DNA of 57,474 nt, filler included, from Ionaspis alba (taxonomy: Eukaryota), in NCBI GenBank assembly GCA_964255285.1. It is 4 parts of 4 records of this genome, joined end to end, with 100 filler letters (N's around TTAATTAATTAA, not from the genome) between each part and the next. Parts side by side here need not be neighbours in the genome. Positions count along the whole stretch, not along the records: positions 28,824 to 43,102 come from CAXUUL010000428.1; 3 more parts are not named here. One strand, 5' to 3'. Below, piece after piece: positions 5,277-51,600 of the stretch (within the stretch, counting starts at the first letter, position 1; every line of letters begins with the position of its first letter). The notes below the pieces were generated by a model. The model ran no database searches. It was not told where the DNA came from and worked only from the letters and a program-made list of their open reading frames with translations. The translations under genes were made by a program, and so were the position numbers.

Positions 5277-5290
5277 GTGTGTGTGTGTGT
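5277..5290. repeat. short (GT)n microsatellite
   Basis: gtgtgtgtgtgtgt run. Confidence 0.8.
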
Positions 5291-8384: not shown

Positions 8385-9123
8385 CTATCGCCTAAACGGG
8401 ATATGCACCAACCACAGTATTTTCTTTTTTCCGTCTTGAAGACGCCATGTCAATAATGGCAACAGGGCCTCGACACTTGTGTAGAAATTCCTATTGCAGA
8501 TGTTGCAAGATGGGGGAACACGAGCTGTTGTTATAACGCGGGAAAACATTGACTTGGCGCGATTGCAGGAATTAGCAAGCTCAATGAACGGGCCCGATAA
8601 ATGTGTTGCATGGCAACGTGTGGGAGGAAGCGGCGCTTCAGCGTCTGTAGTCCCCGTTGATCCAGGTTGAAGGCCTAACGACGTATGATTGTCAAGTTTC
8701 CTCCTTCTCCTCCTTGTCCTCCTTCTATTGTAATGGCAACGTTGCGCCAAGAACATGAAGCATTAGTTTCTCCAGTTTTCTCGGATTTCATGGAAGACAT
8801 CTTCGAAATGTGCATGAATACTCGCAAAAACAATGCGTATAAGTACTTTGCTCTTTCTCGTGTTTAGTTTTTCCTCTAACAAGCCTAGATCATTCATTTC
8901 ATTCCGCAAGGTAGCAATCAAAGAGGCGTAAACATCGTCACTGACACATAACCCTTTTTTTACAGTCTCCAGAGAACAGCTCGTCGAGCAGTAGCGTGTT
9001 TGTGTACGGGAGGACTCCATCACTGAACCATTGTGCGTGGCCGCATCAAAATCAACATCAGCTAAACAAGTCACCGAAAGAGGTGTCAACGATTCGTGGG
9101 TCTAGCTTTCTGCGGAAGAACAT
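8385..9123 (-). pseudogene. hypothetical gene interrupted by an in-frame TAA at 8763-8765
   Basis: ORFs 8763-9089 and 8385-8756 are in the same frame, separated by one stop (…RENWRN*CFMFLAQRCHYNRRR); possible first exon MFFRRKLDPRIVDTSF from ATG 9123. Confidence 0.3.
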
Positions 9124-28823: not shown

Positions 28824-28875
28824 ATCTCAAAACATTTATCAATCCCGAAACTTTTTCTTAGTTCTGTGAGATTTC

Positions 28876-28900
28876 TTTCAAGATGTTGAGCATCTCGAAA
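28876..28900. repeat. degenerate palindrome copy TTTCAAGATGTTGAGCATCTCGAAA
   Basis: matches consensus with a CpG->CpA change in the left arm; further decayed copies at 28824-28833 and 28956-28987. Confidence 0.75.
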
Positions 28901-29039
28901 GAATCATCAACTTTAAAGCTTTACATTTATTTTCTTCTTTCACTAGATGGATGTCTTTCAAGATGTCTTACGTTTTACGTCTCAAAACAATTAAAAATCC
29001 GAAAGTATAAATTAGATATTAACCCTCTATAAGCTCTAT

Positions 29040-30809
29040 TTACAAAACCAATGAACGATAAGAACTCGGCTCACCCTCTCCTACTTCGCCCTCTAGATCT
29101 ATGACGTTGCTATCGACAGCACCTCCTTTATTGCCTTTACCATCGATATCCATATCTTCATGTTCCTGCTCTTTTCCCTCTGTACTCTCATCTTCACTTT
29201 CGATATCAGAATCAACTTCACTAAATCGTTTCCCTTCAACCTCTTTTCTTCCATCCATTGTGACCAAATCCAACAACGAAGCATTACCATCTTGCGCTTT
29301 ATCTTCAACCCTTAGTATCGATGGTCGTCGTCGCGCTTCCAAAGGTATTATTACATTGATATCAATAGCTCTGGTGATTTGTTTGCATCTAGGCACTAAT
29401 TTGACAATACAATCCAAAGTCACCTCCAAAACATTTACACTCCAGGCTCTGAAACTTCAATATTGTCAGCGTAGTAATTCCATCAATAATCAGAAATTAT
29501 ACCTGGTGATATCTTGTTCCGGCAAAAGCACAAACACTCCTCGACCCAGACGCGCCTCCATCGCCTGATAAGGTTGACTCAATGCAATCTCGTTCTTCAG
29601 TCGTATTCTGCTTTTTTTGCACCCACCTTGACTGACAGTCTCGAAATCCACACCGTCCAGTTTATGCACCAAATAATCGTTGACGACTGATCTCCAATTC
29701 CGCCCATGAGATGTTTTCAACCCCATTTTTTCAAATAATTGTCGAGTTTCCGTTTTCGAGTCACACGCGTCTTGAACCATCAAGCTGTATTGATGATAGA
29801 ATTCTGACAGGTGAACATACCGCATACATCGATTTACGACGGCACTGGTTCGCGTAGTTGCCTGCCGTTGATATGCTTCCAAGGTCAATCGTATTGTTTG
29901 GGGAGCTCCAGTTTCCACTGTTGCTTGCCGTTCAGAGGATGCCCCGATATCTTCATCCGCTGCAAGATGAATATGCCGTATCGTCGACAAAAACTGTCGC
30001 AACTGCTTTTTCCCTTCTTCACCAAACACCCGGGCCCAAAACAGTATACATCTGTCCAGCATAGCCACTTCTCTCTGCTTGACTGTGGTTTTCTCGCCCA
30101 GCTTCGCCATTGCCAAATCCCTAATCTGAAAAAACACTTCGGGATGCACCAACAAAGGAGTTGCTTGTTTCCCTTGCGCTTTGTTGAGCAGTCTAGCCCA
30201 AGTATCCTCCTTCGTCATTGGCTCTTTTTTTTTCTTGCTGGGCATTCCAGTTGCGCGGTCTTGGAGTCCTTCATCTTGCCGATCTTCATGATTGTCACTG
30301 TTACTGGGACTTGACCCATCGTCCCGATTGTCCGTAGTCAAAGCTTTGGGCAACAGTTTTGCCTGTGATCGTGTCAACCTTTCAGTTTGTTGACGAGTTG
30401 TGGAAGTCTTTGAGGCTGCAGGGCCAGTGGTCTGAATAGGTTCGGAGGACAACGGCTGGCTCGTAGAATCTAGACCTGTTATCAAAACCTTCAACCAGAA
30501 TATTGGGTCACTGTATTTACTCTTGTTTTGGGTGTCTGGCAGGCCCGAACTGGCTGGAGGTGGTGATCTAAATATCGAAAGATCAGGTCCAAGACCAAAC
30601 CTTTGCCTTCTCCACTCCGATAAGAATCGCTGCAACATATCGATTTCCACAGCTTGATCAGCAGCTTCAAAATCCTCGAGGTAGTCCTTCAATAGACCAA
30701 GCATCGAGGCCTGGTCTTTAGGAGCCTCTCGCTGCCCAGACTGCAGCCCAGTCGAATCTGGGATTAAAGGCATTGAATCTGGGATTAAAGACACATCATC
30801 GTCAGCCAT
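29040..30809 (-). CDS. hypothetical helical protein A1 (paralog of 31154-33020); phase-2 intron at about 29455-29502
   Basis: 439-aa ORF ends …LGRGVFVLLPEQDIT at a gtataa donor; ctgac…gaag acceptor continues FRAWSVNVLEVTLD… into ORF 29040-29429; acidic tail. Confidence 0.7.
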
Positions 30810-31088
30810 TGTAGAGGCCTAGCACTTCCACGTACTTCCTCGGTCTAGCATTGCCAGTGGACTTGACCGTGCTCTTTATCGTCTACCACACTCCGAGGCT
30901 CCTTCCGCCAAGGCGGCGGTATGGAAAAATTTTGATCCAGGCTATCTAGCCAAATTCAGTGATGAAGCTCTCTTGCGGTTCCAGTCATTATCTTGCTGTC
31001 ACTGATACAAAGCAAGAGCTGCAACTACTTCTACTTATGCCAACTACTTCTATCTTACATCCGAATTCGGTTGCCATGTCCAAACACC

Positions 31089-31114
31089 TTTCGAGACTAT
31101 CGATCATCTCGAAA
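31089..31114. repeat. palindrome copy TTTCGAGACTATCGATCATCTCGAAA
   Basis: read directly; about 40 nt 3' of the stop at 31154. Confidence 0.95.
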
Positions 31115-31153
31115 CTCTCAATATCCTAACCCAACCCATCCGATTCATATCTT

Positions 31154-33020
31154 TCAATCGGCCATCTCCACATCAGAATCCGAATCAAAGGTCGTAGATC
31201 CTCCATGCTTAGCTTCATTTGTTGTGTAGGTAGGATCATCCGAGTCGTCATCCGAGTCGTCATCCAAACTTTCCTCATCCTTCTTTTTATCAGCTCCCTT
31301 TTCCTGCTTCTTCGCTCCCCCTCCATCACCCCCTTTAGCCACAGCTTCTTCAATTTCCTCTTCCTCCTCCACCGTATCATCCCAATCCTGCGCCTCAATG
31401 GGACCAGCTGTCTTTACCGGCTGAGGCGTTGATGCAAGCTCTTCAACACTTCCCTCCTTAGCTGCAGGCTCGGTCGGTATGGATTGAGCCCCCAGCACGT
31501 TGTCGTCATCAATCTTCTCGCTGGCTAGCCGGTTGGGGCTCGACATAAGCTCCACCAGATTGACTTTTGAAGACAGAAGGTTGGTTGTCTTCTGGAGGGT
31601 TATAACACGCGGCATTTGCCCGTCGAAAATAGGCTCCACCACATCTAGCATGAAGCTCTGACATACGTTCTTCACAACAGGGCTAATGTCCAGCAAGACC
31701 TTGCCAAAATTCTTGATGTGACGGACCGGCAGAGCGCGTATGCTGACTATTATCAGCAAGATCCATACTGACAGACCGTGGTATCAAATACTCACCAAGA
31801 AACACTGTCCGGTGGTACTATCCCAATGATCCCCAGCGTGAAAACCTCCACAAGCCTGTAGACTGATCGGCCAAAATCAGTCGTGGACTTGAACAGAGCC
31901 TTCTTCCTCTCTTTATCTTTCTCGTCTTTCCAACCTCCATACAATTCTTCCGACAACAGATCATGCAGCCACGAGTCTAATCTTTTCCCCACATATTTCC
32001 TCCTCTGCTGGAGTACCTTCAACCACTCAAAAACCTCTCCTTCCTCGGCCTTCACATTGACTTTCAGTTGATGATACTCCATCCACAACCTTCTGTGTGC
32101 TTCCAGCACAAACATAGTCGCAAACCCACTCATGAGTTCCGTCCTTTGGACCCCCTCAAACAAGCTGATCACCTTCTTTATGCCTGTTGGTAGATCCGCT
32201 TCCTTGCTCAAGGTACCTTCGGTTTTATGCCCTGCTTTTCCCGCACTTCCTTGTCCCTCATGGATGGCGATAAGAGCCTCCCTCAGCCTCAGCAGATTCC
32301 TCTCACTGAAGGTATCTATCATCAACTTCTCACAGGTTCTGGCGCCCGGTGGCCAAGTTGCCACGACAGCTTTATCTTGCACCACTTTTTCCAACACCTG
32401 TCTCAGAGTTGGGCCACCTTTGACGGGACTGAGATAAGGAGTAGTCACCAGACTCTTCATCTGGGATTTGGAAGGTGTATGCTTCCCTTTGGAGGGAGTC
32501 GACGGCACATCGTCTTTCGTCTTGCTTTCGGTTTTCTTCCCCTGCATTTGCACATCATCAGCGTTCATCCTGCTCGTTCAGGGTTCGAGATTATCGATCA
32601 TCTCGAAACTCTGTCGATTACCTACCTGGGATATTTTCTCATCTTCAGCCTCGCTCAATATCTTCTTATTTCCAGCCTCGCTCGATTTCTCTTCATCTTC
32701 AGTCTCGCTCGAGTTGTTCTCGTCTTCAGCCTCGCTCGAGCTCTGTGCATCAATGAGGTCTTCAACCTCATTCTCGTCGATCGAATATCCATGCACTTGG
32801 GCCAGATTCTGATCTAGAGCATTCAACAAGTCTCGTATCCGGTCGATCTTAGCGCGCCACCCAGTACCTTGACCCACATAGGCAACAATCGCTGCAAGGA
32901 TCTGTTTCACTGTTGGTCTGGAATGTCTAACTGGCAACTGGGATGGATGGCATCCTAGAAACTTACGGTTTTCTCCCCACTCTCTTCCTTCGCCTCCTTC
33001 GCTTCGGTTGAGCTGGACAT
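31154..33020 (-). CDS. hypothetical helical protein A2; exons 33020-32967, about 32901-32626, 32541-31796, 31742-31154
   Basis: ORFs 32578-32937, 31792-32568 and 31154-31759 are joined by GT-AG introns; FGRSVYRLVEVFTLGIIGIVP motif; acidic C-terminus; first acceptor uncertain. Confidence 0.7.
32584..32607. repeat. palindrome copy TTCGAGATTATCGATCATCTCGAA inside a predicted intron
   Basis: lies within minus-strand intron 32542-32625 (gtaggt…gctgat…atgcag). Confidence 0.92.
32640..32740. repeat. about 30-bp coding tandem repeat (SSEAEDExx) x4
   Basis: cttcagcctcgctcga-like units repeated. Confidence 0.75.
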
Positions 33021-33277
33021 GGTGTATGGACGATCGAGCGTGAATCCCCTGTCGGTGTGGCTGACTTTAGACTGTTGAAACTTCGATGGTGGGGTGGATG
33101 GTGGGGGTGATGATGTGGTTAGTTACTGGGTTTGTTGACATGGTAACCGTCACAAGGCTGAACAAAGCAACGCTAGTTAAATGCTGCCTAGCCAGTCGCC
33201 TCAAAACGGCAGCAGCACCGACCATCCCACGGTCTTACAAGCTACAAAACATCTCGAAAGATCGAGTCTACTACGTC

Positions 33278-34711
33278 ATGGCTGAACCTTCCCTCTCCCC
33301 CGTGCCCAACCAGATGGCAGAGGGTGATCGTGTCCGACTGGCTTTGTGTGTGCTGAAGCTTTTTCGCACCCTCCGGTGAGCTGCTACCTTACTGTTGTCC
33401 TTTCTCTGTGGTCTAGAATAAGTCAGAGCTGACAAATTTGTCTTTAGTGGCCATACTGTACCTCCTGTGCCCACGAACCTCATCGAATGCTCAGCGGATG
33501 ATATTTGGCGGTTTGTTCGGGATCTGCAAGTGGCCACTGGTCAAACAGCTTTCGATAGGGAGATTATGGCATTATTCGAATCATCAACTGCCTTCATCCG
33601 TCCTCTCCCTGAAAAATTCAAGTCACAGACCTTGCAGACTCGCAAAGGCGGCAGCAAGGTTGTACAGTACCCGATCAGCCTGCTCTTCACGCCACGTGCC
33701 TTGTGCATCGATTCGACTTGGGAACACCCGAACGAGCTTCAAAGCAACCCAGCAGAAGATGAGATGAATCCGGTGCCTCCACGGTATCGGAAAGGACCAC
33801 GCTGGTCCACGAACAGCTGCGCTTATGACTGTGCAATAATGCTCTCGCTTTACATGGAAGTGGGCCGTGTTGAATACGATCAGTTGCCACTTCACTCGCT
33901 GGCGAAACTCAGTTAACCCGAACAGGCACTTCGACGCATCGTTAGCCTTGACTGGTCTCGTCTGACAGAAGATCAGTTAAACCTGGCCCGCAATTTGCTC
34001 AAACAGACTTTGCTGGATCAATGGGCTAGCCAAGGCCACGATACAGGCGCCAACGATTACCAGTCGGTCAGTGATATCTGGGTTGATCTTAACAAAGGAA
34101 CCCGACAATGCTGCACCGCCACTGTCGTTGCCTGGTTCTGTGGGGACTGCCACAAACTTGTCCTTGGTCCTACCAGTATCCCGCGTCAGCAGGTTGAACT
34201 CGCGTTCGATTTCTATACCACCACGCAGCCGTACGACAACCCTCCCAACGTTGCAGCCACTATCCAGCAGCGAATGGAGCGTCATTTTGCTCCAAGGCTC
34301 ATCTCAGCCACCGATCCGCCAAGCAGAGATGTGCTGTGTCCTTATTGCAAGAAGAGGATCTACTACAAGATCAAAGCTGTCTCGACTCGGCTGCCCCTCC
34401 GTTTGGTATTAGGAGCAGACTGGGAAAGTAACGATGTTCCCGTGCCAGGTGCTTTCGAGGAACTGCATATTGGCTATCGTTCAGTGAGGAATGAAAATCG
34501 TATGGCTCACTACGAGTGGCAGGGTGTGGTGTTGAGCCGATCAGCACACTTCTGGGTGGTTTGGAAGTTAAATGCAGATCTGCTCCTGCTTCACGACGGC
34601 CTCAAAGGTAGCAAGGTCCAGTCACTAACTTGGGCCGAGTTCGCAGGTGCTCAATGTGGATGTGCAATGCTGATATACACATTGATTAAAGACGAAGAAG
34701 TGCATACTTGA
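33278..34711 (+). pseudogene. USP/C19-like papain-fold cysteine peptidase with Zn-finger Cys pairs; premature TAA at 33914-33916; intron 33376-33447
   Basis: Cys-box GPRWSTNSCAYDC, CGDC and CPYC pairs, His/Asp box SAHFWVVW…LLLHDGL; ORFs 33467-33916 and 33995-34711 are in one frame across a single stop. Confidence 0.7.
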
Positions 34712-34948
34712 TTCTACATTCAGGCAGGCAATACGTTGGATTTGACACCCTCTGTACACTAAACCATGGAGAGGTTGGAAGACGTCGGGTTAGGCCAAGT
34801 TGAAAGTGGGACCACCAGGGTTACAGTTGATCATGAAACAAGTTGCATCAGGTTACTGGCCACCGCGAGCTGCCCGTTGGCCATTTCTAGTAATACATAT
34901 CCACAGCGCCCGCAGACAAAACGTGCTATCCACCTGACAAGCTTGGCC

Positions 34949-34973
34949 TTTCGAGACTACTGATCATCTCGAG
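34949..34973. repeat. palindrome copy TTTCGAGACTACTGATCATCTCGAG
   Basis: read directly; about 36 nt 3' of the stop at 35009. Confidence 0.9.
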
Positions 34974-35008
34974 TTATATCCTATCCTGCCCAAACCCCCA
35001 TATCTAAT

Positions 35009-36184
35009 CTAACCTTCCTTGATGTCCATCAAATCATCCAATGGTGTGGTCTTGCTAACCTTCTTGCCTTTTTCCTCGGCTTTGGCTGGTGCAGGCTTGG
35101 AACTGAGCTTGCTAGATGGTACAGGCTTGGGACTAGGTTTGTTGAGCTTGCTGGATGGTGTAGGCTTGGAACTGAGCTTGCTGGATGGTGTAGGCTTGGG
35201 ACTAGGTTTGTTGAGCTTGCTGGATGGTGCAACCTTGGGTTTAGGTTTGTTGGCCGGTGATATCTCTTTCATCAATCCACCGGTGAGAGTTCCACTCATG
35301 AACATGCTGAGGAACTTATCAGCATCCCAAGTTGACTTAGGCGTTTCAGCTTTCCACTCCAGTCAGCTTCCTTTGGAGAGAGCAATAATCAGGGTAAGAA
35401 AACACTCACCCAGATGCTTCGATGGCTTGGAGGGTCCTTCAGGCATTTTGGCTGTATTTTGAATGGTCTCCTCAGTAGGCTCAGCTGACTTGACTGATTC
35501 AGATATCTCAAACTCGGCAGTGTTGCTGTCAACCTCTAGACCGATCTCCATCGGCTTTGGCTGAAGACTCAGTGCAACTGGTGATCCTTGCTCAGTCACG
35601 GTGATCTTCTGTTTCTTGCTTGGCGATGCTGGATCCGGTGTCAGCACAACACACTACGAGGACAGCTCCTCATACTTACTGAGAAGTTCGCCCTCCGCAG
35701 AGTGCTTGTGAGTCGATTGAGGTCCAATTGTAAGCTCTACCGGTTTCGACTTCGGCGTGACCCAATGCTCAAGCTCGGTCGCAAGCTGGAATTCAGGCTC
35801 ATCCATTGGTTGCATCGGCTTCGTCTTTGCTGTCCCGGAAAGGTCAGATTGATGCTTAGGGTGCTCGTGCTGGGTTGACGGTGATGTATGAAACATCGTA
35901 GTGACTGTCACGGCTTGAGATGCAGGTGCCTGTCCTTGCAAAGGGTGGATCACTAAAATTCGTGTAAGACGGGCTAGCAATATCTTCCAATATTTTTTTT
36001 TCAGTGTACCTTCCGCCACTATACGCAGTATCTGTGCCAATTCTTTGTATCCGTTCAGGTAGCCCTGAGCCCGAGGCCAGATGATCTCGTGAAGCAGGCT
36101 ATGGAGCTGTATATACCAGTTAGCCGGCACGGAAATCCTGGGAATGTGGTCGAACCCTGGCCATATCGTCGTCATGGAGATCAT
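35009..36184 (-). CDS. hypothetical protein with K/P/S-rich repeat tail; exons 36184-35680, 35628-35410, 35349-35009
   Basis: three ORFs joined in frame by phase-1 introns (gtaagt…ctgac…ccag; gtgagt…ctgac…aaag). Confidence 0.65.
35088..35250. repeat. alternating 30/39-bp coding tandem repeat (KPTPSSKLS / KPTPSSKLNKPSP)
   Basis: gagcttgctggatggtgtaggcttgg core repeated about 4-5 times. Confidence 0.85.
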
Positions 36185-36427
36185 GGTTATTTTCAGCCAT
36201 CTTTACTAGCGCTTGCGCGATTTTGACAATGCAGTTGCAGGATATGCTCGTAGGACAAGGATGTGGAGGTGGTGGTGAAGCAGGGTTACTACAAGGTCAT
36301 GCGGCAGTGGAAGCCGGGATGCTGCATCGCTGTAGGAGGTGTGGTTATCCGACAAAACAAATCCGTTGCCCGTGGCAACGGATCAGCACACAGCCGACCA
36401 ACAGATGCGGCCGGATCACTGCAGGGG

Positions 36428-36452
36428 TTTCGAGATGTTGATCATCTCGAAA
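36428..36452. repeat. palindrome copy TTTCGAGATGTTGATCATCTCGAAA
   Basis: read directly; lies in the divergent intergenic region 36185-36594. Confidence 0.95.
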
Positions 36453-36594
36453 AGCATAAAGCACCTCATACCGTCTTCTGTTTTACTGCCAAGTTAAGCT
36501 CTCAGTCATCCGTAAAAGATCCAGCCTCTCTGCCACCAGCCTACAATACTAACAATACCAACTCTACGGCTGGCAATTCAGACCCACCAGCTCC

Positions 36595-37713
36595 ATGATG
36601 GACGACGAAGATTCCATCCAGACCACGACAGATACCCAGTCTTGGGAATGGGTCAGCACCCACACCACGCAATTCCCCATCAGCAGTCCCATCAACCATC
36701 AGTCTCTACACATCCACCCTACCCTGCTTCTACAGGACACCGCCGATGTCCCCGTCATGGATGAGAATAGTGCGATGGCTCCGATACCACCCCGATACCG
36801 CCAGGGTCCTACGCCAGCTGCCAGCAACAATGCTGTCGATGTCGCTTTTATGGTAGCATTGTTTATGGAGGTCGGCCGGGTGGCTGCAGATCAGATGACC
36901 GAGCGTGAGATGGATCTGCTTCCTCGATCTGCAAGCATTACCCGCAGCGCCATCCGACGTGATTGGACTAGCCTCAACTGCGAGGAAATCAATCAGATGC
37001 GAGACTTCATTGAAGATCAAATCAGACAGGAGTGGATTCAGCGAAATGAAAGTTCTGGTCGTGACCTTCCAATAAATTTCGGCTGGACTTTCGCCCGAAT
37101 TACTCGTGGTTCTCTACAATGCCGACTGGTCATGGCCGCAGGTTGGTTTTGTTACAACTGTTGCAAGGCCTCGTTGAGCCCCACTTCCACTCCTTCCATC
37201 ATTGAGGTCATGGGTCTTAACGAGGCTGCCTATGAGTTTATCGGTGAGCACGAGAGCCAAGGATGCTCACTTAGCCAAGCTTTAAGGGAATACTTCCGCG
37301 CAACCGAATATCGCAAAGGCAAATGCTCGTATTGCGGAAAGAACGTCCCTCGGCAGCTGAGACTCCTCTGCACGACCTGTCCTGCCCGACTCGTGCTCGG
37401 AAGCGATTGGTGGCGCTCGGATTTCACATCTCCTTCCCCCTTCGACGGGATGGAATTTGAATATCACAGTGTGACAGGCGAATGGCGCGACGTACGATAC
37501 GCCTGGCAATGTTGTGTCGGTGTGGGGAGGATGACGGGGCGGTACCAACTTGCATGGAAGATGTCGGAATGGATGGTCTGGGTCTACGGCGAGAAGGATG
37601 ATGGTAGTGTGGAAATGATAGGGTTGGATGACTTTCAACGCCGCATCGATTCCATCGAGATGATGGTGTACACTCGCGTGGAGGATGAACCGATTACTGT
37701 TACGTTCCGGTAG
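36595..37713 (+). CDS. catalytically inactive paralog of the USP-like peptidase
   Basis: colinear with 33278-34711 (PxPPRYRxGP, MEVGRV..DQ, DW..L, WFC..C.K, CxYCxK, PxRLVLGxDW, YxSV, YxWQ) but NSCAYD->SNNAVD and AHF->GRY. Confidence 0.75.
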   Translation: MMDDEDSIQTTTDTQSWEWVSTHTTQFPISSPINHQSLHIHPTLLLQDTADVPVMDENSAMAPIPPRYRQGPTPAASNNAVDVAFMVALFMEVGRVAADQMTEREMDLLPRSASITRSAIRRDWTSLNCEEINQMRDFIEDQIRQEWIQRNESSGRDLPINFGWTFARITRGSLQCRLVMAAGWFCYNCCKASLSPTSTPSIIEVMGLNEAAYEFIGEHESQGCSLSQALREYFRATEYRKGKCSYCGKNVPRQLRLLCTTCPARLVLGSDWWRSDFTSPSPFDGMEFEYHSVTGEWRDVRYAWQCCVGVGRMTGRYQLAWKMSEWMVWVYGEKDDGSVEMIGLDDFQRRIDSIEMMVYTRVEDEPITVTFR

Positions 37714-37760
37714 TTGGAAAGCACCCATAGAGCTCACTACAGTGAATCCAAATCGTGGCA

Positions 37761-37788
37761 GTTTCGAGACAATCGATCATCTCGAAAC
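37761..37788. repeat. palindrome copy GTTTCGAGACAATCGATCATCTCGAAAC
   Basis: read directly; about 48 nt 3' of the stop at 37713. Confidence 0.95.
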
Positions 37789-38429
37789 AAGTGACTGTGG
37801 TGACATCACATGCGACCTAGTGACATGTTTGTGTGTTGTACAATGGTTTATCCTAGGTTCGCGATATGGAGGCTCGCTTCTACAAAGACATTGTGGGAAG
37901 CTGACAGGTCTTGACCCGCACCCTCGTTGCGAGTAATCTTCTACCAGAACCCGTCTGCCACAATCGGCCTCCTCCGAGCATTCCCCGACTTCACCTTAGC
38001 CCAACTGCCACCTGGTTGTGGCGACTGACAAGTATTGGTAGCACGAGGCTTTCTTTCCTTTTTGAGTTGAGGATACACCTTCGGGTCGAAGGCGATAGCC
38101 CTAGTGCCATCCTTCTTGGTCCAATATGACCATCCGCAAGAATGCCAGGCTCGGGGCAATAGTGATATCCCCACCTCCAGCCAAACTGCCTTCGCGCGAC
38201 ATAGCGGGCATTTTTGGAGTGGGTCTGCAAGCCACTTCGTCCGGTCAGTACAAGTGCACTATTATGGGACCAACTGCCCTGAACTTACCCGCTCGAGGCA
38301 ACTGGAGTGAAAGACGTGTTGACAGCACATGATACGGAGGAGATGATCGTACTGTTCATATTTTTCCAAACACACAGAGCATGCTACGCGTAGTCAGCTG
38401 AAGAGCCCTAACCCAAATATCTCATATGT

Positions 38430-38654
38430 TTACCTGGTGTTTCGATCGGATGATGCGGCTGTAGAGTCGTGGGTTTTTCTTTTCTGCCCGAAGTCGTATT
38501 TATCCCAGTGTCGATTTTGTCTGTGTATATTCAGTCTTTCCATCCAGTCAGAACAGCAGTGGTGAAACCAACCTGGCTTTGTAATCTTTGGTGGCAGTGG
38601 GATCTGCTGACCCGTCGGATCGTACAATCTCGCGATGCGCTTCCATCGCGCCAT
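38430..38654 (-). CDS. small hypothetical ORF (74 aa)
   Basis: ATG-started ORF in the element, followed by the AGAGCCCTAA motif also found after the 1335-aa gene; no recognisable domain. Confidence 0.25.
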   Translation of the reverse strand: MARWKRIARLYDPTGQQIPLPPKITKPGWFHHCCSDWMERLNIHRQNRHWDKYDFGQKRKTHDSTAASSDRNTR

Positions 38655-38869
38655 GGTTTATGATTTCACTGACAGATCCCAAGTGTGAGTATTGCAGTAT
38701 CGTGACTGTAACCTCAAGAAAAACTACAGCCGTAGAAAGAAAAGATGAATTGGTGGGAGGTAAGGGATGGGAGGTTGTCTCAGAGGTCGCAACCGCGTTT
38801 CTGCGAAATCAACAACGCCATATTAGATTGATACGGGTCACTGTCCTCGATCCTAACTAGAGCCCTAAG

Positions 38870-41800
38870 CTAAACGCTCATAATCGTCAATTGACGTTCC
38901 ATCTCCTCCGATGTCCAATCCAGCATACGAGGCAGAGCGTCGGGCGTACCTGCACGAGCTTGGAGTTTGCCCCATCCTCGATAGTCTGGCTTTCGAGGGT
39001 CAAGCAGTAAAGACCACCACACCCGATGCCCTCCAATCTTGCTCACGGAAATCATACATCCTGCCGCCGCCGTGACATCGGGCACGGGATATATCCAGTG
39101 ATAACGCACCAGTTCTGCTTCAAACTTCCGCTCCCAGCTGCTTTCAGGATCCACCTCTGGGGCATAGGACTTGTATGTTTCCCGAGCAGCCTGATAAGCT
39201 TGTCTGTAGGGCTTGTTGATGAACCGGGTCCGCACCGTTTCCCCATCCGTCCCCCACAAGATGTCAAACAGCATCCCGAATTCTTTGATGGTAGACTTGT
39301 TACCGTTCAACAAATAAGGCTCTCGCCCAAAAATCTCACGGATTGTGGTTGAAGAGAATCCTACCATCGCCTGTACTGCCTTATCGAGCTGGGCAGGATC
39401 AACTTCCTTTTTCAGGGTCGCGACAACATCCCGTCGATACTGCTGCAGACATATGTGTATCATATAGTGGGTGATATAATCGTGGGCTTTTTTGTTCCGG
39501 AACCGCCTGTACCAATGATCACAGTCGTTAATCTGAACGGTGAAATCCCGGACGGCCTGGACATCTTTCCAGTTGGCCTTGTAGTGGGCCATCAATGCCG
39601 AGTTGCCAAACGGTACCTTGTTCCTGAATCTATGTTTAAACATCCTGGCCTTCCAATCAACCAACGGTGCCATCCAACAATAACCGTATCGCAAAAGACT
39701 GATCCGAAAAGCGAGGCCAACGTACGCACGTGTTTCCCCCGACCGCATCACAAGATTTCGAGTACTCCACCACAAGGCCCCTTCACGGGCCAGCTCATGG
39801 GCAACCAGGGAATAGCGCAGACAACGTAGAAACATAGCCATAATTTTGGTTTCTTCCCAGGTGACATAACTACGGTTGCATCGGGCCGCGGTCATTTCAA
39901 AACCCGCTGCGTACTTATTGACGTTATTCCACACATACCGTAGGAAGTTTTCCGTGCGGACCGGCCATACTGCTCGGGATTGTTCGGCTGCATTGTCGTC
40001 AATATCGTCCACAGCGTGGGCGAGCGATGCTTGGTATATCTCCTGAAGAAGGGACCACGATATCCGATGCTCTTCTCGGACCCCGAATGATTTCTGGATG
40101 GAGCCGTTGATTGCCTTATTAACCCGATCTTTGCTGTGTTTGTAGCTTTTCTCCAACACATCCTGCGGGGCTTGGGTGGCATGGGCAGCGGCGGCAGCAG
40201 CAGCGCGGACCCCAGGGTCCAGTGCCAGACCCTCCAAGCCGTCGTTGGCAAAAGGAAAGGTTTTCCCAGCATCGAAGATTTCCTTGAAAGAGGAATAAAA
40301 CTGACTATACACTAAACCGTCCCGGCGGAGCGAGGATTTAGCCGATGGTGTAGATGAAAGGTTGGAAGTATCCCGCAGCATAGCTACGTCGTAGAAGACG
40401 TGGTTACCATTCGGCCTGTTCCCGTACATCTTCTGCACATAGGTTTTCAAGCAGCAGTGGCGCCAGAGAAGGGTCTGGGGCTCGGAGTCTCGCGGCAATG
40501 CTTGCCGCGACAGACAGTGGACGGATGGGCAGGTTTCTTTGCCTAAATCCACATAACAGTCCTTGAGGTCCATGTAATCGGTATCAAGCACCCTATCGAC
40601 AAAAGTAAAAAACTGCTCCAGGCAGCCGTGGACAGTCGGGGCTTGGTCCTGTGCGGGCTTGAATAGAAGTTTGGTGCCTTTGGCGGAAAAAAACAGCTGC
40701 ACGTCTGCAAAATCGTGCAGGCCCGGCGTCGTCGAAACAGTGCGGAGTACATCAATCCAGATCGATTCCAGCCGATCCTGAGGGATGAAATAGGCAAACA
40801 ATTGCCGGGATTGATAGGAGGTGGTCCTGTGGGTCCGACCTTCTGTTTGACGGGCTGTCGATTGTGCACGAGCATGGGCGTAAGAGGAAGGTATATGCTG
40901 TGTGTGGTTGGCTTCCAGATTGGAGTGCAAAGCAGGCAGGAAGACCATATCGGTCCATCGGCGAAGCTGATTGTCATCAAGACACGTGAATTTCTGCCCG
41001 AATTGCCGCAGACGAGGGAAAAGTACGTAGATACCTAGCTCTTTGGCCATGTTGGCGTTTCCCAAGAACAGGTGGGGGGTGTCTTTGATATGCACTTGTT
41101 CCCTGTGAGTCCTTCCATGCTGATCTTCTGACTGAATCTCTTGGTGTAGATGCAGGTCCGTACGGATATTCTGCGTCATCTGAGGGGTGGGATTGTACCA
41201 AATACCTCGCCGAGCAGCAGCAAGGGAATGGACAAAAAAAAGATAGCTGTCGATATCCAATGCTGTTTCTGGCTGGCTGGGTTCCGTCTTCTCCGCATGA
41301 AGGCAGATGCTGGGCGGCGAACTTCCTGCCTGAGCCGATCCGGTATACCAGTTGCGGAACTGTCGGTTGCAACCAAAATCTATATTGTGTTTTCTGTCCT
41401 TCAACATTACATCGTAACCCAGGACCTTGGGGATATCGTGGAAATAGGCGTTTGCAAGCGCGTAATGATCGACAACATCAAGATCATGGAGCCGGCTTTG
41501 CTCTTCGTGCTCCTTTTCGGAGCAGCCATCGAAGGATTTCAACTGGGCCAACAGTTTCAACGCAGTATCGGAAAATCCAGGTCCGGAAGAGTGGTCTAGA
41601 GATGACAGGTCAAGATGCGGGGTTTCGAGATGATTGTCATCTCGAAACTCCTCATTGCTGTTCACCAATATGGGCGCAACAAGATTCGGGGTTTCGAGAT
41701 GACTGTCATCTCGAAACCCCTCAATGCAACTTGCCGCTATCGAGAGTACAGACGGCATCGAAGGCAAACCCTCAATATCCGATGGTCTAACATTGGATCC

Positions 41801-42877
41801 ACGACGTACAGCCTGCAATTTATGATTATCAGCTGGTGTCGGTCGCGGCATTGTTTCCACAGATGATATGGGGGCAAAATAGCTGCGAATCGAAGAACCA
41901 GTGCTTGGCTTGTATGAGCTTGGTGAAGGGTTAACTGTTTTCCGAGGGCGTCCTCTGCTGCGGGTAGAAGTATGCTTGGCTGGGGCTTTCGACGTGGCCT
42001 TGATCGAAACATTACCCGGATGGTTGAGAGTACCAGAAGTGGGTGTAACCAACTTTTCTGCCGAATTTCTAATGTCATTGTCCCAAGCATCGTCATCGTC
42101 TACCTCTATTTCGATGTTCCCGCCTGTTTCTCCATCTCTTTTGCATTGCGGGTTGGTGAAAAGGCCGGCCGGAGGAAGTAGGGATGAAGGGAAAGCACGA
42201 TAGGAAGGTTGTTTGTGAATCAAAGTGTTCGAAGAAGACTCCGGACTAAGCGCCGCAGTCAGCATAATTGATTCTGTGGCGTCAGCGACAGCGTTGAATG
42301 TTGACGATTGACTCGAAAGCATCGTCGGATCATCATTTTTGACCCAGGGACTGGATACTGGATGTGGTGGTAAGATATCTGAATTCCAATCATCTTCTAT
42401 GTTCGAAGACCTTGGAGAGGGTAATTGATGGAGATTCGAATTTCTGGATTCAACCGGCATTGATATGAGATCATCTTTCATCTCTAATGCTTGATGGAAG
42501 CTCTGTAAAGATGGACTGGGTGAGACGGAATTGGTTTCGGTTATATCTTCCGACTCGTTATCCGTCGATTCGTTTGAAAAAACATCGAAAGATGCATCAC
42601 TAAAAATCGGCTCGTTATCAGTAGAATGAGCTGTAGGTACTGGTAAATCGTGCTCGGTGGCAATGGTCAAGTTATGAAGTCGTAGTCCGATATTCAGCGG
42701 GGTAGGATGAGTTTGGATATCGTCTGGATTGCTTTGAATAATTGTCATACGTTGCTGGGCTTGCGATTCAGTAACGAAGGTTGTATATGGTTCGATTTTG
42801 GATTGTTGTATTGATTGTTTATTAGAATCTTGTGCTTCTACCATAGAAGTAAATCTGGAATGGGTACGTTTAGCCAT
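38870..42877 (-). CDS. 1335-aa intronless protein: disordered N-terminus with AT-hook, large C-terminal domain of unknown function (putative replication initiator/transposase)
   Basis: uninterrupted 4-kb ORF; RSRGRPRK AT-hook; motifs DIDS, YVDLGKETCP, GLVYSQFYSSFKE, SFGVREEHRIS; functional call is inference. Confidence 0.8.
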   Translation of the reverse strand: MAKRTHSRFTSMVEAQDSNKQSIQQSKIEPYTTFVTESQAQQRMTIIQSNPDDIQTHPTPLNIGLRLHNLTIATEHDLPVPTAHSTDNEPIFSDASFDVFSNESTDNESEDITETNSVSPSPSLQSFHQALEMKDDLISMPVESRNSNLHQLPSPRSSNIEDDWNSDILPPHPVSSPWVKNDDPTMLSSQSSTFNAVADATESIMLTAALSPESSSNTLIHKQPSYRAFPSSLLPPAGLFTNPQCKRDGETGGNIEIEVDDDDAWDNDIRNSAEKLVTPTSGTLNHPGNVSIKATSKAPAKHTSTRSRGRPRKTVNPSPSSYKPSTGSSIRSYFAPISSVETMPRPTPADNHKLQAVRRGSNVRPSDIEGLPSMPSVLSIAASCIEGFRDDSHLETPNLVAPILVNSNEEFRDDNHLETPHLDLSSLDHSSGPGFSDTALKLLAQLKSFDGCSEKEHEEQSRLHDLDVVDHYALANAYFHDIPKVLGYDVMLKDRKHNIDFGCNRQFRNWYTGSAQAGSSPPSICLHAEKTEPSQPETALDIDSYLFFVHSLAAARRGIWYNPTPQMTQNIRTDLHLHQEIQSEDQHGRTHREQVHIKDTPHLFLGNANMAKELGIYVLFPRLRQFGQKFTCLDDNQLRRWTDMVFLPALHSNLEANHTQHIPSSYAHARAQSTARQTEGRTHRTTSYQSRQLFAYFIPQDRLESIWIDVLRTVSTTPGLHDFADVQLFFSAKGTKLLFKPAQDQAPTVHGCLEQFFTFVDRVLDTDYMDLKDCYVDLGKETCPSVHCLSRQALPRDSEPQTLLWRHCCLKTYVQKMYGNRPNGNHVFYDVAMLRDTSNLSSTPSAKSSLRRDGLVYSQFYSSFKEIFDAGKTFPFANDGLEGLALDPGVRAAAAAAAHATQAPQDVLEKSYKHSKDRVNKAINGSIQKSFGVREEHRISWSLLQEIYQASLAHAVDDIDDNAAEQSRAVWPVRTENFLRYVWNNVNKYAAGFEMTAARCNRSYVTWEETKIMAMFLRCLRYSLVAHELAREGALWWSTRNLVMRSGETRAYVGLAFRISLLRYGYCWMAPLVDWKARMFKHRFRNKVPFGNSALMAHYKANWKDVQAVRDFTVQINDCDHWYRRFRNKKAHDYITHYMIHICLQQYRRDVVATLKKEVDPAQLDKAVQAMVGFSSTTIREIFGREPYLLNGNKSTIKEFGMLFDILWGTDGETVRTRFINKPYRQAYQAARETYKSYAPEVDPESSWERKFEAELVRYHWIYPVPDVTAAAGCMISVSKIGGHRVWWSLLLDPRKPDYRGWGKLQARAGTPDALPRMLDWTSEEMERQLTIMSV
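41622..41720. repeat. two tandem palindrome copies inside the CDS (41622-41648; 41688-41720)
   Basis: GTTTCGAGATGATTGTCATCTCGAAAC and perfect GGGGTTTCGAGATGAC-T-GTCATCTCGAAACCCC, 69 nt apart; both encode FRDDxHLETP. Confidence 0.95.
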
Positions 42878-43102
42878 AATAGTTAGAATAGCGAAAGATT
42901 ATTGTGAGATCCAATTATTTCTATAGACTGTAGTACGTAGTAGCAAGACACGACCTAATGACGAAACGCTAAATAATTATAATTTTCTATTACAGCCACA
43001 AATTTTTAATAGCTATATTATATATTTAATAAAAATGATTAACTATAAAATAGAATATCCAAATTTTAAAGAATATGAGAATTCTATTAATTAAGTTAAG
43101 AT

Positions 43103-48625: not shown

Positions 48626-51600
48626 ATGCGGGGCTATCATTTCTTTCCTCTGCTCGTCTCTTTGAGCGCTACAATTACTGGTTATTTGGTTCAAGCTCAA
48701 GAGCCGGGCATCTGTCCTCAAGACAATGGCAAATATAGGACAACCTCAGCCGGTACGTGCTTTTCCTTTCTCTATCTGATTCTAATATCAGTTTTCGTTG
48801 AATACTATATACCTACGGTGGCTTCACTCTGTCCAAATCCATAGTCATTAGTCTGTGGTACTTCAATTGACCTCTTTCTCCCGTGCTCATGAGCTCGTTA
48901 CGCATGTGATACGACGTATTTGCTTTGGCAACTGAGCACTGACACTGCTCCCAGGGACCTTCCTGATTACCTGTGGCATGAAGTCTGCACGCAACATGAT
49001 GGGGCCTCCTAATCCTGAGACAAAACCCAGCTTCGCTGCCTGTATCGATGCCTGTGCTGCAAGAGCTGGTTGCAAAAGCGTGGACTACAACGCTGATACG
49101 TCAGCTTGCACTTATTTGGGTGGTGCATATGTATGTCGTCGATTTAGTGAACGCCTCAAATCGCAATCGAGCCATGTGCGCTTTGTGGAGCTCGTCTCGG
49201 CTCATATGCTCAAGTCTATCATACTGTTCGATAACTGATGTATGTCCAAATATCTAGGTACCTGCGCTTGCCAGCGCTAGCGGTCCAACAGTCCATAATG
49301 CCCGCCTTGCCACCAAGCCTGCAGACACGGCCAACACAGGAACGGGTGGCACGTCTGGGACGGGATCAGGAGGTACCTCTGGAACAGGGTCGGGATCGGG
49401 AGGTACCTCTGGAACAGGATCGGGATCAGGAGGCACCTCTGGAACAGGGTCGGGATCAGGAGGTACCTCTGGAANNNNNNNNNNNNNNNNNNNNNNNNNN
49501 NNNNNNNNNNNNNNNNNNNNNNNNNNNNNNNNNNNNNNNNNNNNNNNNNNNNNNNNNNNNNNNNNNNNNNNNNNTCGGGATCAGGAGGCACCTCTGGAAC
49601 AGGGTCGGGATCAGGAGGTACCTCTGGAACAGGATCGGGCTCTACGACCGGAGGACAGACAGGAGGTGGATCCAATCAAGTGCCTATCGGTGGTTCCTCT
49701 GGAACGTCAACAGGATCTGGCTCAACCCCAGGATCCAGCTCATTTGTGTACACAGAAGATGCAAAATGCAATGGGGCACATAACAAGGTGTACATATCTA
49801 GTGATGGTAAGATCTTCTGAAGTTCCAACTGCATGTTTGCAGCGTGCTATCTTTGAATCTCTACACAAGAAAGCTGCTGAGCATTTATCCTAGGCACTTA
49901 TTACATAATTCAGTGCAATTACCAGGCCAGTCGGACTCTGATTAATAGCGGAACGTCGCAAGGGTTGAAAGAATGTGCGTATGGGTTGAACACTGAAGCG
50001 AATTCTGCAGTTTACTAATAAGCGTAGGTGCTGAAAGGTGTTCGGCCACGGTAAGCCGTATTCCTAGATCAAGCCTAAGCATCTCTGATCTTAGAACAGA
50101 ATGGCTGTCTTTCGGTACAATTCAATGCTCGTGCACTACCCGGAAGTACGGACTCTCTGGGCACCTGTCGCCTTTACGGAGAGGGGGACGCCGCTACACA
50201 AAGGAGCGAATCACATGACTTTGCGTATGTCAATCCAGCCTCGGTCCTTTTGGAGTGATCATAAGCCGTCTCTGATGTAATTCTTAGCTACGCTATTGAT
50301 CCGCCCACCCAAGACGCTCCAGATTTCCCTAATCAGTTATGCACCACTGTAAGTACCACTACATTCCTTTGATCAATCCAGGCTAACAGCTGCAGGCATG
50401 TCCTTACTCAGTATGATTTGACTCGTCCATATACCACGTAAGTGGGTGGGCTAATAGTACCTAGGATGGGATGACATATACTTCGTCGTTCGGAGAAGCA
50501 TTCAAAATGGACTGCGGAAAGCGGCATGGAACAGCCATCCTGTCCATGAGTTATACCGACACTTTCAACCAATGCGAGTAGCTAAATCTGCTTCTATGGT
50601 AGGTCTTCGCTGATGGCATTCTTAGGCATGGACAACTGTGCGAAGATTGTTGCGTGTCACAGCGTCGATTATCAAGCCCGTAAGCGGAGCCGTTCCCATC
50701 CAATCGTGCTCTAGAGACTGACAAGTGGTGACCAGGGACTAAGAAATGCTATTACGGAACCCACCACGGCAACCCTATGATAATGGCAACAGGCTTTGAT
50801 AGTGCACACAGCGTGGGATGTGCAAATGCTTGTGGAGAAGGCTGCTGTGGTTGCGGCAAAAAGGTTGGTCAAACACAGCTCCATTTCCTTCAACTGTTGC
50901 GGCCGCGTTCCGTCCCGACACTATATATCTTGATGTGAATGTGTCACGCGATGCGGCGCTATCTTTCATCTCTCAAATGTGTTTCTCCGTCCTGTGGGCT
51001 GCTGTATAATTGATGGAAAATGCTACCAATACAATCTTGCGCACTCATCACTGACCTCCGCTAGTCTGAAACCCAAGAACCCGAATTGCCCAAGAAGGCG
51101 GATATATCTTGTGGCAATCAGGGTCTTGCATATGCTGTATATCCCAACAAGAAGGCCGACGGCACAAATAACGCGTATACCGATGGCTATCCTAGCTTCG
51201 ACCCCAACCTCTTCAAGACCATGGCACCAGAATATTCCGGCAATACCAAAAATTTTGGTTTTCCAAATACCCAGAACATATATGCGCAAGCACCGAAAAC
51301 GCCCGATTATGTCACCGTCAATCACAGAGGCTACATCTTTGCGGAGCAGTCTGGCGAATACACGTTTACTTTCCCGTCCATTGATAACATTGCTTTGCTC
51401 TGGGTTGGCACGACAGCTTATTACGACTACACTCGCAGCAACGCCAACCTTGAACAGCTATACGTCGCGGCGGGAGGGCAACCGGTGCAATACAAGGCCA
51501 CGTTCACAGCGGGACAGTATTACCCCTTCCGAGCCATGTTCGGCAATGGCGGAGGCCCCGGAAACTTCAAGCTCAGCATCAAAGGACCGGATGGGAAAGT

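Follow-up and report, generated by a model that had tools for sequence, protein, structure and literature searches.

The window analysed here is a stretch of 57,474 nucleotides (nt) from Ionaspis alba, built of four ~14.3-kb pieces that are joined by N...TTAATTAATTAA...N spacers. Its third piece (contig 3, window positions 28824-43102, 14279 bp) carries the gene of a large protein of 1335 amino acids (aa), P0001, together with smaller open reading frames (ORFs) and a family of short palindromes dispersed among them. None of the 12 ORFs scanned in contig 3 has any Pfam family, and in the other three contigs 6 of 11 ORFs have one (HLH, Sds3, IBR, DUF676, peroxidase, GMC oxidoreductase), being ordinary eukaryotic genes. 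In this paper we looked at the palindromes of contig 3 and at the DNA around homologues of the large gene; the data are 57 kb of one genome together with metagenome fragments.

The pattern TTCGAGA-N{9,10}-TCTCGA gives 13 strand matches in the whole window, which correspond to seven sites (match starts 31090, 32584, 34950, 36429, 37763, 41624 and 41693), and all seven are in contig 3. In shuffled sequences the mean is 0.02 matches and the maximum 1, and none of 100 shuffles reaches 13. The remaining 43 kb of the window, from the same assembly, holds no copy. Beyond the seven sites there are one degenerate full copy and one half-site, both again in contig 3. The word ATCTCGAA occurs eight times and TCATCTCGAA six times, always inside contig 3; the bare heptamers are less confined to it (TTCGAGA 7 of 12, TCTCGAA 9 of 14). 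The sequence-only reading had described a real palindrome family restricted to this contig, with nearly invariant arms, a variable centre and a common polarity, and each of these points holds: all sites have identical arm words, the centre differs from site to site in both sequence and length, and the plus strand has TCATCTCGAA six times and TTCGAGATGA twice. Its half-site near 33250 was also confirmed, the right arm alone being kept there, as were its decayed copies at 28824 and 28956, both of them weak. Three of its coordinates had to be moved by 1-4 nt (37761 to 37762, 41622 to 41623 and 41688 to 41692). The 26-mer by which it described the family fits, with at most three mismatches, the sites at 31089, 32583 and 37762 but only those three, because the remaining sites have a 9-nt centre. 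The features of contig 3 are collected in Table 1.

Table 1. Palindrome copies and genes of contig 3, in window coordinates.
Feature	Position	Strand	Description
Decayed copy, weak	28824		ATCTCAAAA at the first base of contig 3
Degenerate full copy	28876..28901		TTTCAAGATGTTGAGCATCTCGAAAG, left arm G>A; near left end of contig 3
Decayed copy, weak	28956		TTTCAAGAT...GTCTCAAAAC
439-aa ORF	29490..30809	-	No Pfam family
Type A copy	31089..31114		Start 40 nt past stop codon of minus-strand gene 31154..32568
Gene of two ORF pieces	31154..32568	-	258 aa + 165 aa
Type A copy	32583..32608		15 nt upstream of ATG 32568
Half-site	33235..33260		Right arm CATCTCGAAAG only; 18 nt before ATG 33278
Paralogue of 372-aa ORF	33278..34711	+	In pieces (33566-33913, 34274-34708); start and first intron by eye
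Type A copy	34949..34974		Right end worn (..TCTCGAGT); gap between ORF 34274..34711 (+) and ORF 35654..36184 (-)
176-aa ORF	35654..36184	-	No Pfam family
Type B copy	36428..36452		GGGG-TTTCGAGATG-TTGAT-CATCTCGAAA; between divergent ORFs
372-aa ORF	36595..37713	+	Two CxxC pairs
Type A copy	37762..37787		48 nt past stop of 372-aa ORF; convergent gap before 1335-aa gene
1335-aa gene, P0001	38870..42877	-	N-terminal part poorly conserved, holds two in-frame copies
Type B copy	41623..41647		Within 1335-aa ORF; in-frame reading FRDDNHLE
Type B copy	41692..41716		Within 1335-aa ORF; in-frame reading FRDDSHLE

The full copies fall into two types. Type A (31089, 32583, 34949 and 37762), with a 10-nt centre, has the form TTTCGAGA-yw-ATCGATCATCTCGAAAC, its left arm being worn, and type B (36428, 41623 and 41692, with 28876 close to it) has the form (GGGG)TTTCGAGATG(A)-3 to 5 nt-(T)CATCTCGAAA. 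When the arms are taken as 10-11 nt, 3-6 nt are left for the centre, which varies with the arm words fixed. Both types keep one polarity: all four type A sites are worn on the left arm, and all four type B centres are TTG or CTG on the plus strand, never CAA or CAG. For each of these four-out-of-four counts the two-sided chance is 0.125 if the insertions were independent. No direct repeats were found in the 8 nt on either side of any of the eight sites, so there is no target-site duplication. About one site is found per gap between genes in contig 3, where the gene models were drawn partly by eye. The 36428 site ends 143 nt before the ATG at 36595 (167 nt counted from its first base), and the 32583 site is framed on the minus strand by GTAGGT, CTGAAC and CAG as a 56-nt intron-like unit. 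Splice signals are seen at this one of the nine window sites, and the exon frames that flank the unit do not join. Inside the large gene, the 41692 copy repeats the unit 41611-41658 as an in-frame duplicate of 69 bp (92% identity), and the pair 41623/41692 makes a long inverted repeat with 36-nt arms. With the 33235 half-site left out, the predicted hairpin energies of the full copies are between -4.1 and -17.3 kcal/mol for DNA and between -6.0 and -26.5 kcal/mol for RNA; at four of the five asymmetric sites the minus-strand RNA folds better, by means of G-U pairs. Readings as heat-shock elements or as Zn2Cys6-type sites, compared by eye with their consensus sequences, were rejected as neither the spacing nor the triplets fit. 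Contig 3 itself begins inside a right-arm-like word, and its assembly may have broken at a palindrome. Its ends are AT-rich (42878-43102 and 28824-29100, GC content 0.41-0.42 vs ~0.50 inside).

Contigs of the sequencing run sharing 92% of the stretch's words were aligned to contig 3, and 206 of them aligned: 51 at 99% identity or more, 28 at 95-99%, 48 at 90-95% and 79 below 90%. The changes in these copies run almost in one direction, with 371 C>T and 335 G>A (706 of 725) against 6 A>G and 13 T>C. Among the changes listed, 24 C>T/G>A places were in the context CpA (14), CpT (7) or CpC (3) and none in CpG. Repeat-induced point mutation (RIP) leaves such one-directional hypermutation in diverged repeat copies. 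This pattern indicates that contig 3 is a little-mutated copy of a multi-copy element, of which it covers at least part, in a fungus with a RIP-like process. No longer element with palindrome termini was found in the window. Short pieces of contig 3 (99-100% identity) are also seen in run X2 of the same study, which carries the label of another organism, at a depth of ~3 vs 64-200 in the source run; a shared element or library-to-library carry-over could account for them.

The DNA of relatives consists of 43 metagenome loci around homologues of the large gene. According to the sequence-only reading, absence of the motif around homologous loci would speak against it. The exact motif is indeed absent from all 43 loci, but this condition was too narrow, because homologous loci hold other palindromes in the same kinds of places. 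In a strict test, which asks for at least two separate sites with one exact 7-nt arm in common, contig 3 has six sites, L034 six, L004 five, L009 and L031 three each, and L012 and L014 two each. The other 36 loci and the three other window contigs have at most one site, and 20 shuffles of each sequence gave a maximum of one, with one single case of two. When mismatches are allowed, L009 has ten copies of GTAGACAATTGTCTAC, L011 nine copies of GTAGACTGCAGTCTAC-like words, L014 seven copies of ATCTCGAGTT (six of them in an array), L031 five copies of its own palindrome and L019 five copies of GGGGTACCCC, which it has in common with L028. By simple arithmetic ~0.05 matches are expected by chance for a 16-mer with at most three mismatches in 14 kb. 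Some of the loci are nearly identical (L012 to L009 99.5%, L025 to L014 100%, L028 to L019 99.3%), and after merging there are eight distinct elements, contig 3 and seven others, with private palindromes beside the large gene.

Of the two most telling comparisons, the first is between contig 3 and L034, in which TTTCGGCATGAGC(G/T)CATGCCGAAA is found at 6-7 gaps between ORFs. The L034 palindrome, TTTCGGCATGA..TCATGCCGAAA, is a compensated variant of that of contig 3: TTTCG-AG-ATGA / TCAT-CT-CGAAA in contig 3 is TTTCG-GC-ATGA / TCAT-GC-CGAAA in L034, so that two inner arm bases are changed complementarily on both arms (AG/CT to GC/GC). Every copy in the two elements carries its own element's version. 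Polarity is kept in L034 too, where all four asymmetric centres read AGCG on the plus strand, and in both elements the genes are on both strands. A larger palindrome of ~48 bp (..CGTCACGTGATTTCCGCATGTGCGCATGTGGAAATCACGTGACG..), whose core is a one-base variant of the repeated one, is found upstream of the large ORF in L034 (2590-2660). The accessory genes differ by sub-group. The 372-aa ORF family is found in contig 3 and L034 only; L009 and L011 have an SNF2-type gene, L019 and L028 one with an OrsD domain, and L014 and L025 a weak F-box-like ORF. Over contig 3, L034, L009 and L011 the sites avoid coding sequence and are mostly non-coding: 8 of 34 are in ORFs of 150 aa or more, a class that takes up 62-66% of the DNA; the measure is crude, as such ORFs run into introns. 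Some relatives have short tandem arrays. L017 carries the 15-bp unit GTGCATCTCACAGGC on both sides of the large gene in direct orientation (1-164 and 4545-4776), and L011 carries 24 units of CAGGTGCACGCCCAG, also 15 bp (4463-4843). These arrays look like iterons and not like palindromes.

The second comparison concerns L009 and L011, where palindromes are also found in introns. L011 has four palindrome-bearing units of 142, 55, 81 and 79 nt, each of which shows GTAnGn, a CTRAC that resembles a branch site, and AG, and when all four are removed a single ORF of 1520 aa with SNF2 motifs is obtained. Removing both units of L009 opens an ORF of 832 aa that runs to the contig end. Over 799 aa the two SNF2-type proteins share 53% identity. 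Introns 1 and 2 of their genes are at aligned residues in the same phase (417.0 vs 423.0 and 687.33 vs 693.33), and in each of them the palindrome follows the 5' splice site by 8 nt. The centre of the palindrome is AATT in all ten L009 copies and TGCA in seven of the nine L011 copies, the other two being off by one base. From such orthologous introns with element-specific centres it follows that the intron positions are old and the palindrome sequences were changed in concert. The introns of L011 have the 5' splice site, the palindrome and a C-rich tract in common and are in this sense sister introns. L009 also holds longer units of 383 bp (5600-5982), 53 bp (7810-7862) and 42 bp (8731-8772), each bounded by GTAGACAATTGTC...GACAATTGTCTAC and with no target-site duplications at their flanks, and its 16-bp palindrome looks like a collapsed form of these. 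A 213-bp tandem duplication at 5087-5508 of the same locus holds a palindrome.

P0001 belongs to a large protein family. Forty word-indexed relatives are 29-59% identical to it, the closest being P0002 (59%), whose contig is 17.6 kb long, and most are encoded on contigs of 4-8 kb. A profile search found 2183 representative clusters (at 50% identity) with E up to 0.001, and 678 with E up to 1e-30. The conserved core is ~900 aa, and the alignment shows many invariant charged residues, several D and E among them, together with an invariant Y428-x3-Y432-x3-K436 motif. Pfam searches on the 40 aligned and 25 further long members found no relevant domain, P0001 has no sequence match in the PDB, and IMG/VR holds no relative. 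The literature searched, which does not reach most subscription journals, describes neither this family nor palindromes that are private to single elements in fungi. A protein-atlas lead to DUF8286 clusters (0.94, 164-168 shared features) was dropped, since it is below the mark of 170 and the Pfam model gives no match; the name DUF8286 was not found in the literature searched either. We also rejected the P0002 peptide GFGDDNYPQT, at the place of FRDD.HLE, as a trace of a coded palindrome: one with 11-nt arms is codable there, but also by 10% of control 10-mers.

The core structure was predicted with confidence (906 aa; predicted local distance difference test, pLDDT, 84.4; predicted template modelling score, pTM, 0.80), and a 451-aa sub-domain reached pLDDT 78.5. 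In three VIA-align searches the top rows were always Rep_trans rolling-circle initiators, 1-2 Z units above the next rows: 4cwc_A (Z 5.5, 170 aligned, root-mean-square deviation 5.7), 4cij_A (Z 5.0 and 5.3, the latter with 182/267 residues aligned and a root-mean-square deviation of 5.1) and 4cwe_A (Z 5.0), all below the level that the tool trusts, where a Z under 8 may reflect a common arrangement alone. TATA-binding proteins follow at Z 3.3-3.8, and none of the listed fold neighbours is an HUH structure. Searches of PDB and BFVD with Foldseek gave nothing at E up to 0.001, with E-values of 4 or worse for Rep_trans. Two viral proteins like the VETF large subunit, met in BFVD at E 1.2-2.3, were not relied on. 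In the accessible part of PMC4797284, the Rep_trans active site is described as a catalytic tyrosine with three metal-binding carboxylates, and the initiators are said to nick a stem-loop that is conserved and to recognise an inverted repeat that is specific to the plasmid.

The question raised by these results is what the palindromes do. The explanation that we prefer, a tentative one that we hold at somewhat under even chances, is that they may be private recognition sites of a protein encoded by the element, at which a DNA transaction (nicking, strand transfer or recombination, for instance) would take place. The likeliest reader is the 1335-aa protein. The element's own protein would read the palindromes sequence-specifically, probably in extruded form, as a hairpin or cruciform, or else as a pair of half-sites. 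A copy-and-paste step within the element would lay down new copies with no target-site duplication and with one polarity kept, the copies within each element would be kept alike and self-complementary, and the transaction would serve replication, transposition or gene pick-up. We infer protein binding, the identity of the binder and nicking or recombination at the sites. At least 22 fixed bases recur at eight places, which is beyond point mutation or convergence, so the copies should be paralogous and descended from one another, and some copy-and-paste step presumably exists. Since the arms are invariant within an element whilst the centre varies, recognition would be sequence-specific, of a stem or of half-sites, and would rest neither on pairing alone nor on a fixed duplex spacing. 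We favour a DNA transaction over plain transcription control for several reasons: there are no target-site duplications, the polarity is single and the centre or loop varies; the sites are found in gaps of all kinds, including convergent gaps, introns and a coding linker; the accessory genes vary between sites; and the only structural neighbours, weak as they are at Z ~5, are enzymes that nick a stem-loop and recognise an inverted repeat specific to their element. The sequence-only reading had listed four roles, namely a dimeric-protein operator, a cruciform nicking origin, a recombination site or the footprint of a micro-element. An element-tied recognition site fits the private palindromes, their compensated changes and the polarity, but a classical excision footprint or miniature inverted-repeat transposable element (MITE) is not supported, eight sites of eight having no target-site duplication.

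Known systems offer partial parallels. In bacteria, repetitive extragenic palindromic (REP) sequences with their RAYT transposases (REPINs) are short palindromes private to the lineage of the associated gene, and the IS200/IS605 elements, with their subterminal hairpins, are related to them. As in REP/RAYT, our palindromes are short and imperfect (20-40 bp), are found in non-coding DNA, are private to the associated gene among them, keep strand polarity, have no target-site duplications and co-vary with one gene, here in eight distinct elements. Unlike REP/RAYT, the host is eukaryotic, the copies keep to the element, with none in the other 43 kb of the window, and are not spread by the hundreds genome-wide, some are in spliceosomal introns and a coding linker, and neither an HUH motif nor a Pfam match was found in the associated protein. 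Other known cases are integron attC sites, which go with gene cassettes, and the 3' hairpins of Helitrons, which capture genes by end bypass. Contig 3 resembles these in its co-oriented imperfect palindromes between unrelated genes, with one gene per interval (on models partly by eye), in accessory genes that differ between related elements, and again in the lack of target-site duplications; it differs in that no tyrosine recombinase or Rep/helicase domain was found in the ORFs scanned and that the genes are in both orientations. The double-strand origins of the pT181 family are also inverted repeats, partly conserved and partly element-specific, that are read by a protein (PMC4797284, accessible part), as we suppose here. 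They differ in being one origin on a plasmid vs eight dispersed sites, and their Rep_trans proteins are matched at Z ~5 only, with no PF02486 match and with a protein four times larger in our case.

Several observations weigh against private recognition sites. By the strict test 36 of the 43 loci have no palindrome family; most of them are barely longer than the gene, but L023 and L026, at 15 kb each, are also among them. In some relatives 15-bp tandem arrays are found beside the large gene in place of palindromes. No Pfam match to Rep_trans, HUH, DDE or tyrosine recombinase was found in P0001 or among its scanned relatives (40 aligned and 25 further), nor any match to PF02486 (Rep_trans) at E up to 1 in the 40, and the predicted likeness of the core to Rep_trans, at Z ~5, is a weak match, to be taken as a lead and not as a fold assignment. 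Self-BLAST found no terminal inverted repeats in contig 3 or 16 relatives, and the ends of the element are undefined. Among ~70 loose ends of other genomic copies a single one falls inside a site (32603), and as a signal we rejected it, since one such match is expected by chance among that many. The one polarity could have been inherited from an asymmetric founder copy. Sites after stops, before starts and in introns fit a role at the RNA level or in regulation equally well.

One such role is that of a transcriptional operator, in which a dimeric factor encoded by the element would bind the palindromes between the genes and switch these genes together. We regard this as unlikely, although a good part of the layout suits it: there is about one site per gap, two start codons have sites 143-167 nt and 18 nt upstream, one gap is divergent, and a private, co-evolving motif fits a private factor. 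The large gene of L009 and L011 adjoins that of an SNF2-type ATPase, and TATA-binding proteins are among the weak fold neighbours (Z 3.3-3.8). However, sites are also found in convergent 3'-3' gaps (34949 and 37762), in introns of 55-142 nt close to the 5' splice site (four of four in L011, two of two in L009) and within the large ORF, where they are read in frame. The spacing of the half-sites is not constant but differs by 1 bp, the polarity is single despite genes on both strands, and no DNA-binding domain was recognised in any ORF scanned, 23 neighbour ORFs included.

Another explanation, which we also find improbable, is a selfish micro-element resembling an introner or a MITE, which copies itself locally and is tolerated in gaps, untranslated regions (UTRs), introns and a disordered linker, with no role for the element that hosts it. 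The paralogous insertions proposed above would be what it needs. The in-frame pair is in a poorly conserved linker, L009 has units of 16, 42, 53 and 383 bp with identical termini, and the sister introns of L011 are of the kind that such an element would leave. Introner-like elements and symmetrical (stw)introns are known from fungi (PMC8469720; PMC3609843; accessible parts), and the sister (stw)introns of Hypoxylaceae are symmetrical, proliferate genome-wide and have terminal repeats of 45-55 nt and no target-site duplications, according to the accessible part of PMC8469720. L009 and L011 agree with introners in having sister introns with a palindromic core, reading frames that are open when these are spliced out and no target-site duplications, and one window copy is flanked by splice signals. 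They differ in that introners spread through many unrelated genes, whereas here, in DNA from around the large gene, the copies are within one element, are mostly outside introns and have a core of 16-26 bp. Confinement to the element, with no copy in the window's other 43 kb from the same assembly, argues against a free-running copier. Decay in such a copier also predicts something other than orthologous introns, in proteins 53% identical, whose palindromes are intact and changed in concert. As for a MITE, the unit of 25-26 bp has no target-site duplications and is, to our knowledge, far smaller than any MITE.

That the palindromes act as RNA hairpins, as stem-loops in UTRs and introns for processing, stability, splicing control or small-RNA production, is quite unlikely in our view. 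Sites 40 and 48 nt past two stops, 18 nt before a start and in the introns of relatives would be suitably placed, the predicted stems of -6 to -26.5 kcal/mol fold better on the minus strand at four of five asymmetric sites, and the in-ORF inverted repeat with 36-nt arms draws weak microRNA-like matches in Rfam. Yet the three Rfam matches are far below their gathering scores (31 vs 100 bits), at 37762 the better-folding strand is not that of the adjacent gene, and the stem sequence is invariant among the copies of an element, which is more constraint than pairing needs. Finally, P elements are known to leave joined-tip footprints, and tips joined by ragged repair should give a variable centre between fixed outer arms, but excision footprints of a terminal-inverted-repeat transposon with ends TTTCGAGATGA... 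are hardly credible: the target-site duplication is missing at eight of eight sites, it is implausible that insertion and excision took place independently eight times within 14 kb and not once in the remaining 43 kb, no longer element with such termini is found in the window, and concerted change between relatives is not expected.

If the palindromes are private recognition sites, a large unannotated and well-folding family (2183 clusters at 50% identity) would gain a DNA partner that can be tested, and eukaryotes would have a counterpart of the bacterial systems of palindrome plus enzyme (REP/RAYT, rolling-circle origins, attC). The copies in introns would give a dated example in which sister introns are recognition sites of a mobile element, which bears on the origin of introns. 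The covarying variants of contig 3, L034, L009 and L011 would be ready substrates for specificity swaps in binding and nicking assays. A bolder form of this explanation, which we consider doubtful, is that a superfamily of eukaryotic mobile elements not described before would be founded by the large protein. Such elements would move or replicate by Rep_trans-like tyrosine nicking of private hairpins; these sites would be copied inside the element and would delimit picked-up genes, and introns would have been seeded from them in some lineages.

The other genes of contig 3 add some detail. Both the 372-aa ORF and its paralogue have the arrangement CxxC...CxxC followed by P-x-R-L-V-L-G, and there is one homologue in L034. 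A word search with the 372-aa ORF found no relative but itself; in the protein atlas its nearest entries are USP/UCH ubiquitin hydrolases (0.94, 159 shared features), so it is possibly USP/UCH-like, as a lead only. Between the 258-aa and 165-aa pieces of the minus-strand gene there is a 53-nt intron-like unit (31743-31795, GTGAGT..CTGAT..CAG), a candidate intron. Tandem repeats are also found in contig 3, one of 27 bp in four copies (32636-32744), which on the minus strand gives an acidic SEAEDE-type repeat, and one of 69 bp in 2.3 copies (35083-35252) within a low-complexity ORF. In contig 4 a 30-bp tandem repeat (GGAGGTACCTCTGGAACAGGGTCGGGATCA-like, 49370-49630) spans an assembly gap of 100 N (49475-49574); it accounts for the recurring AGGTACCTC words and probably codes for a Gly/Ser/Thr-rich stretch.

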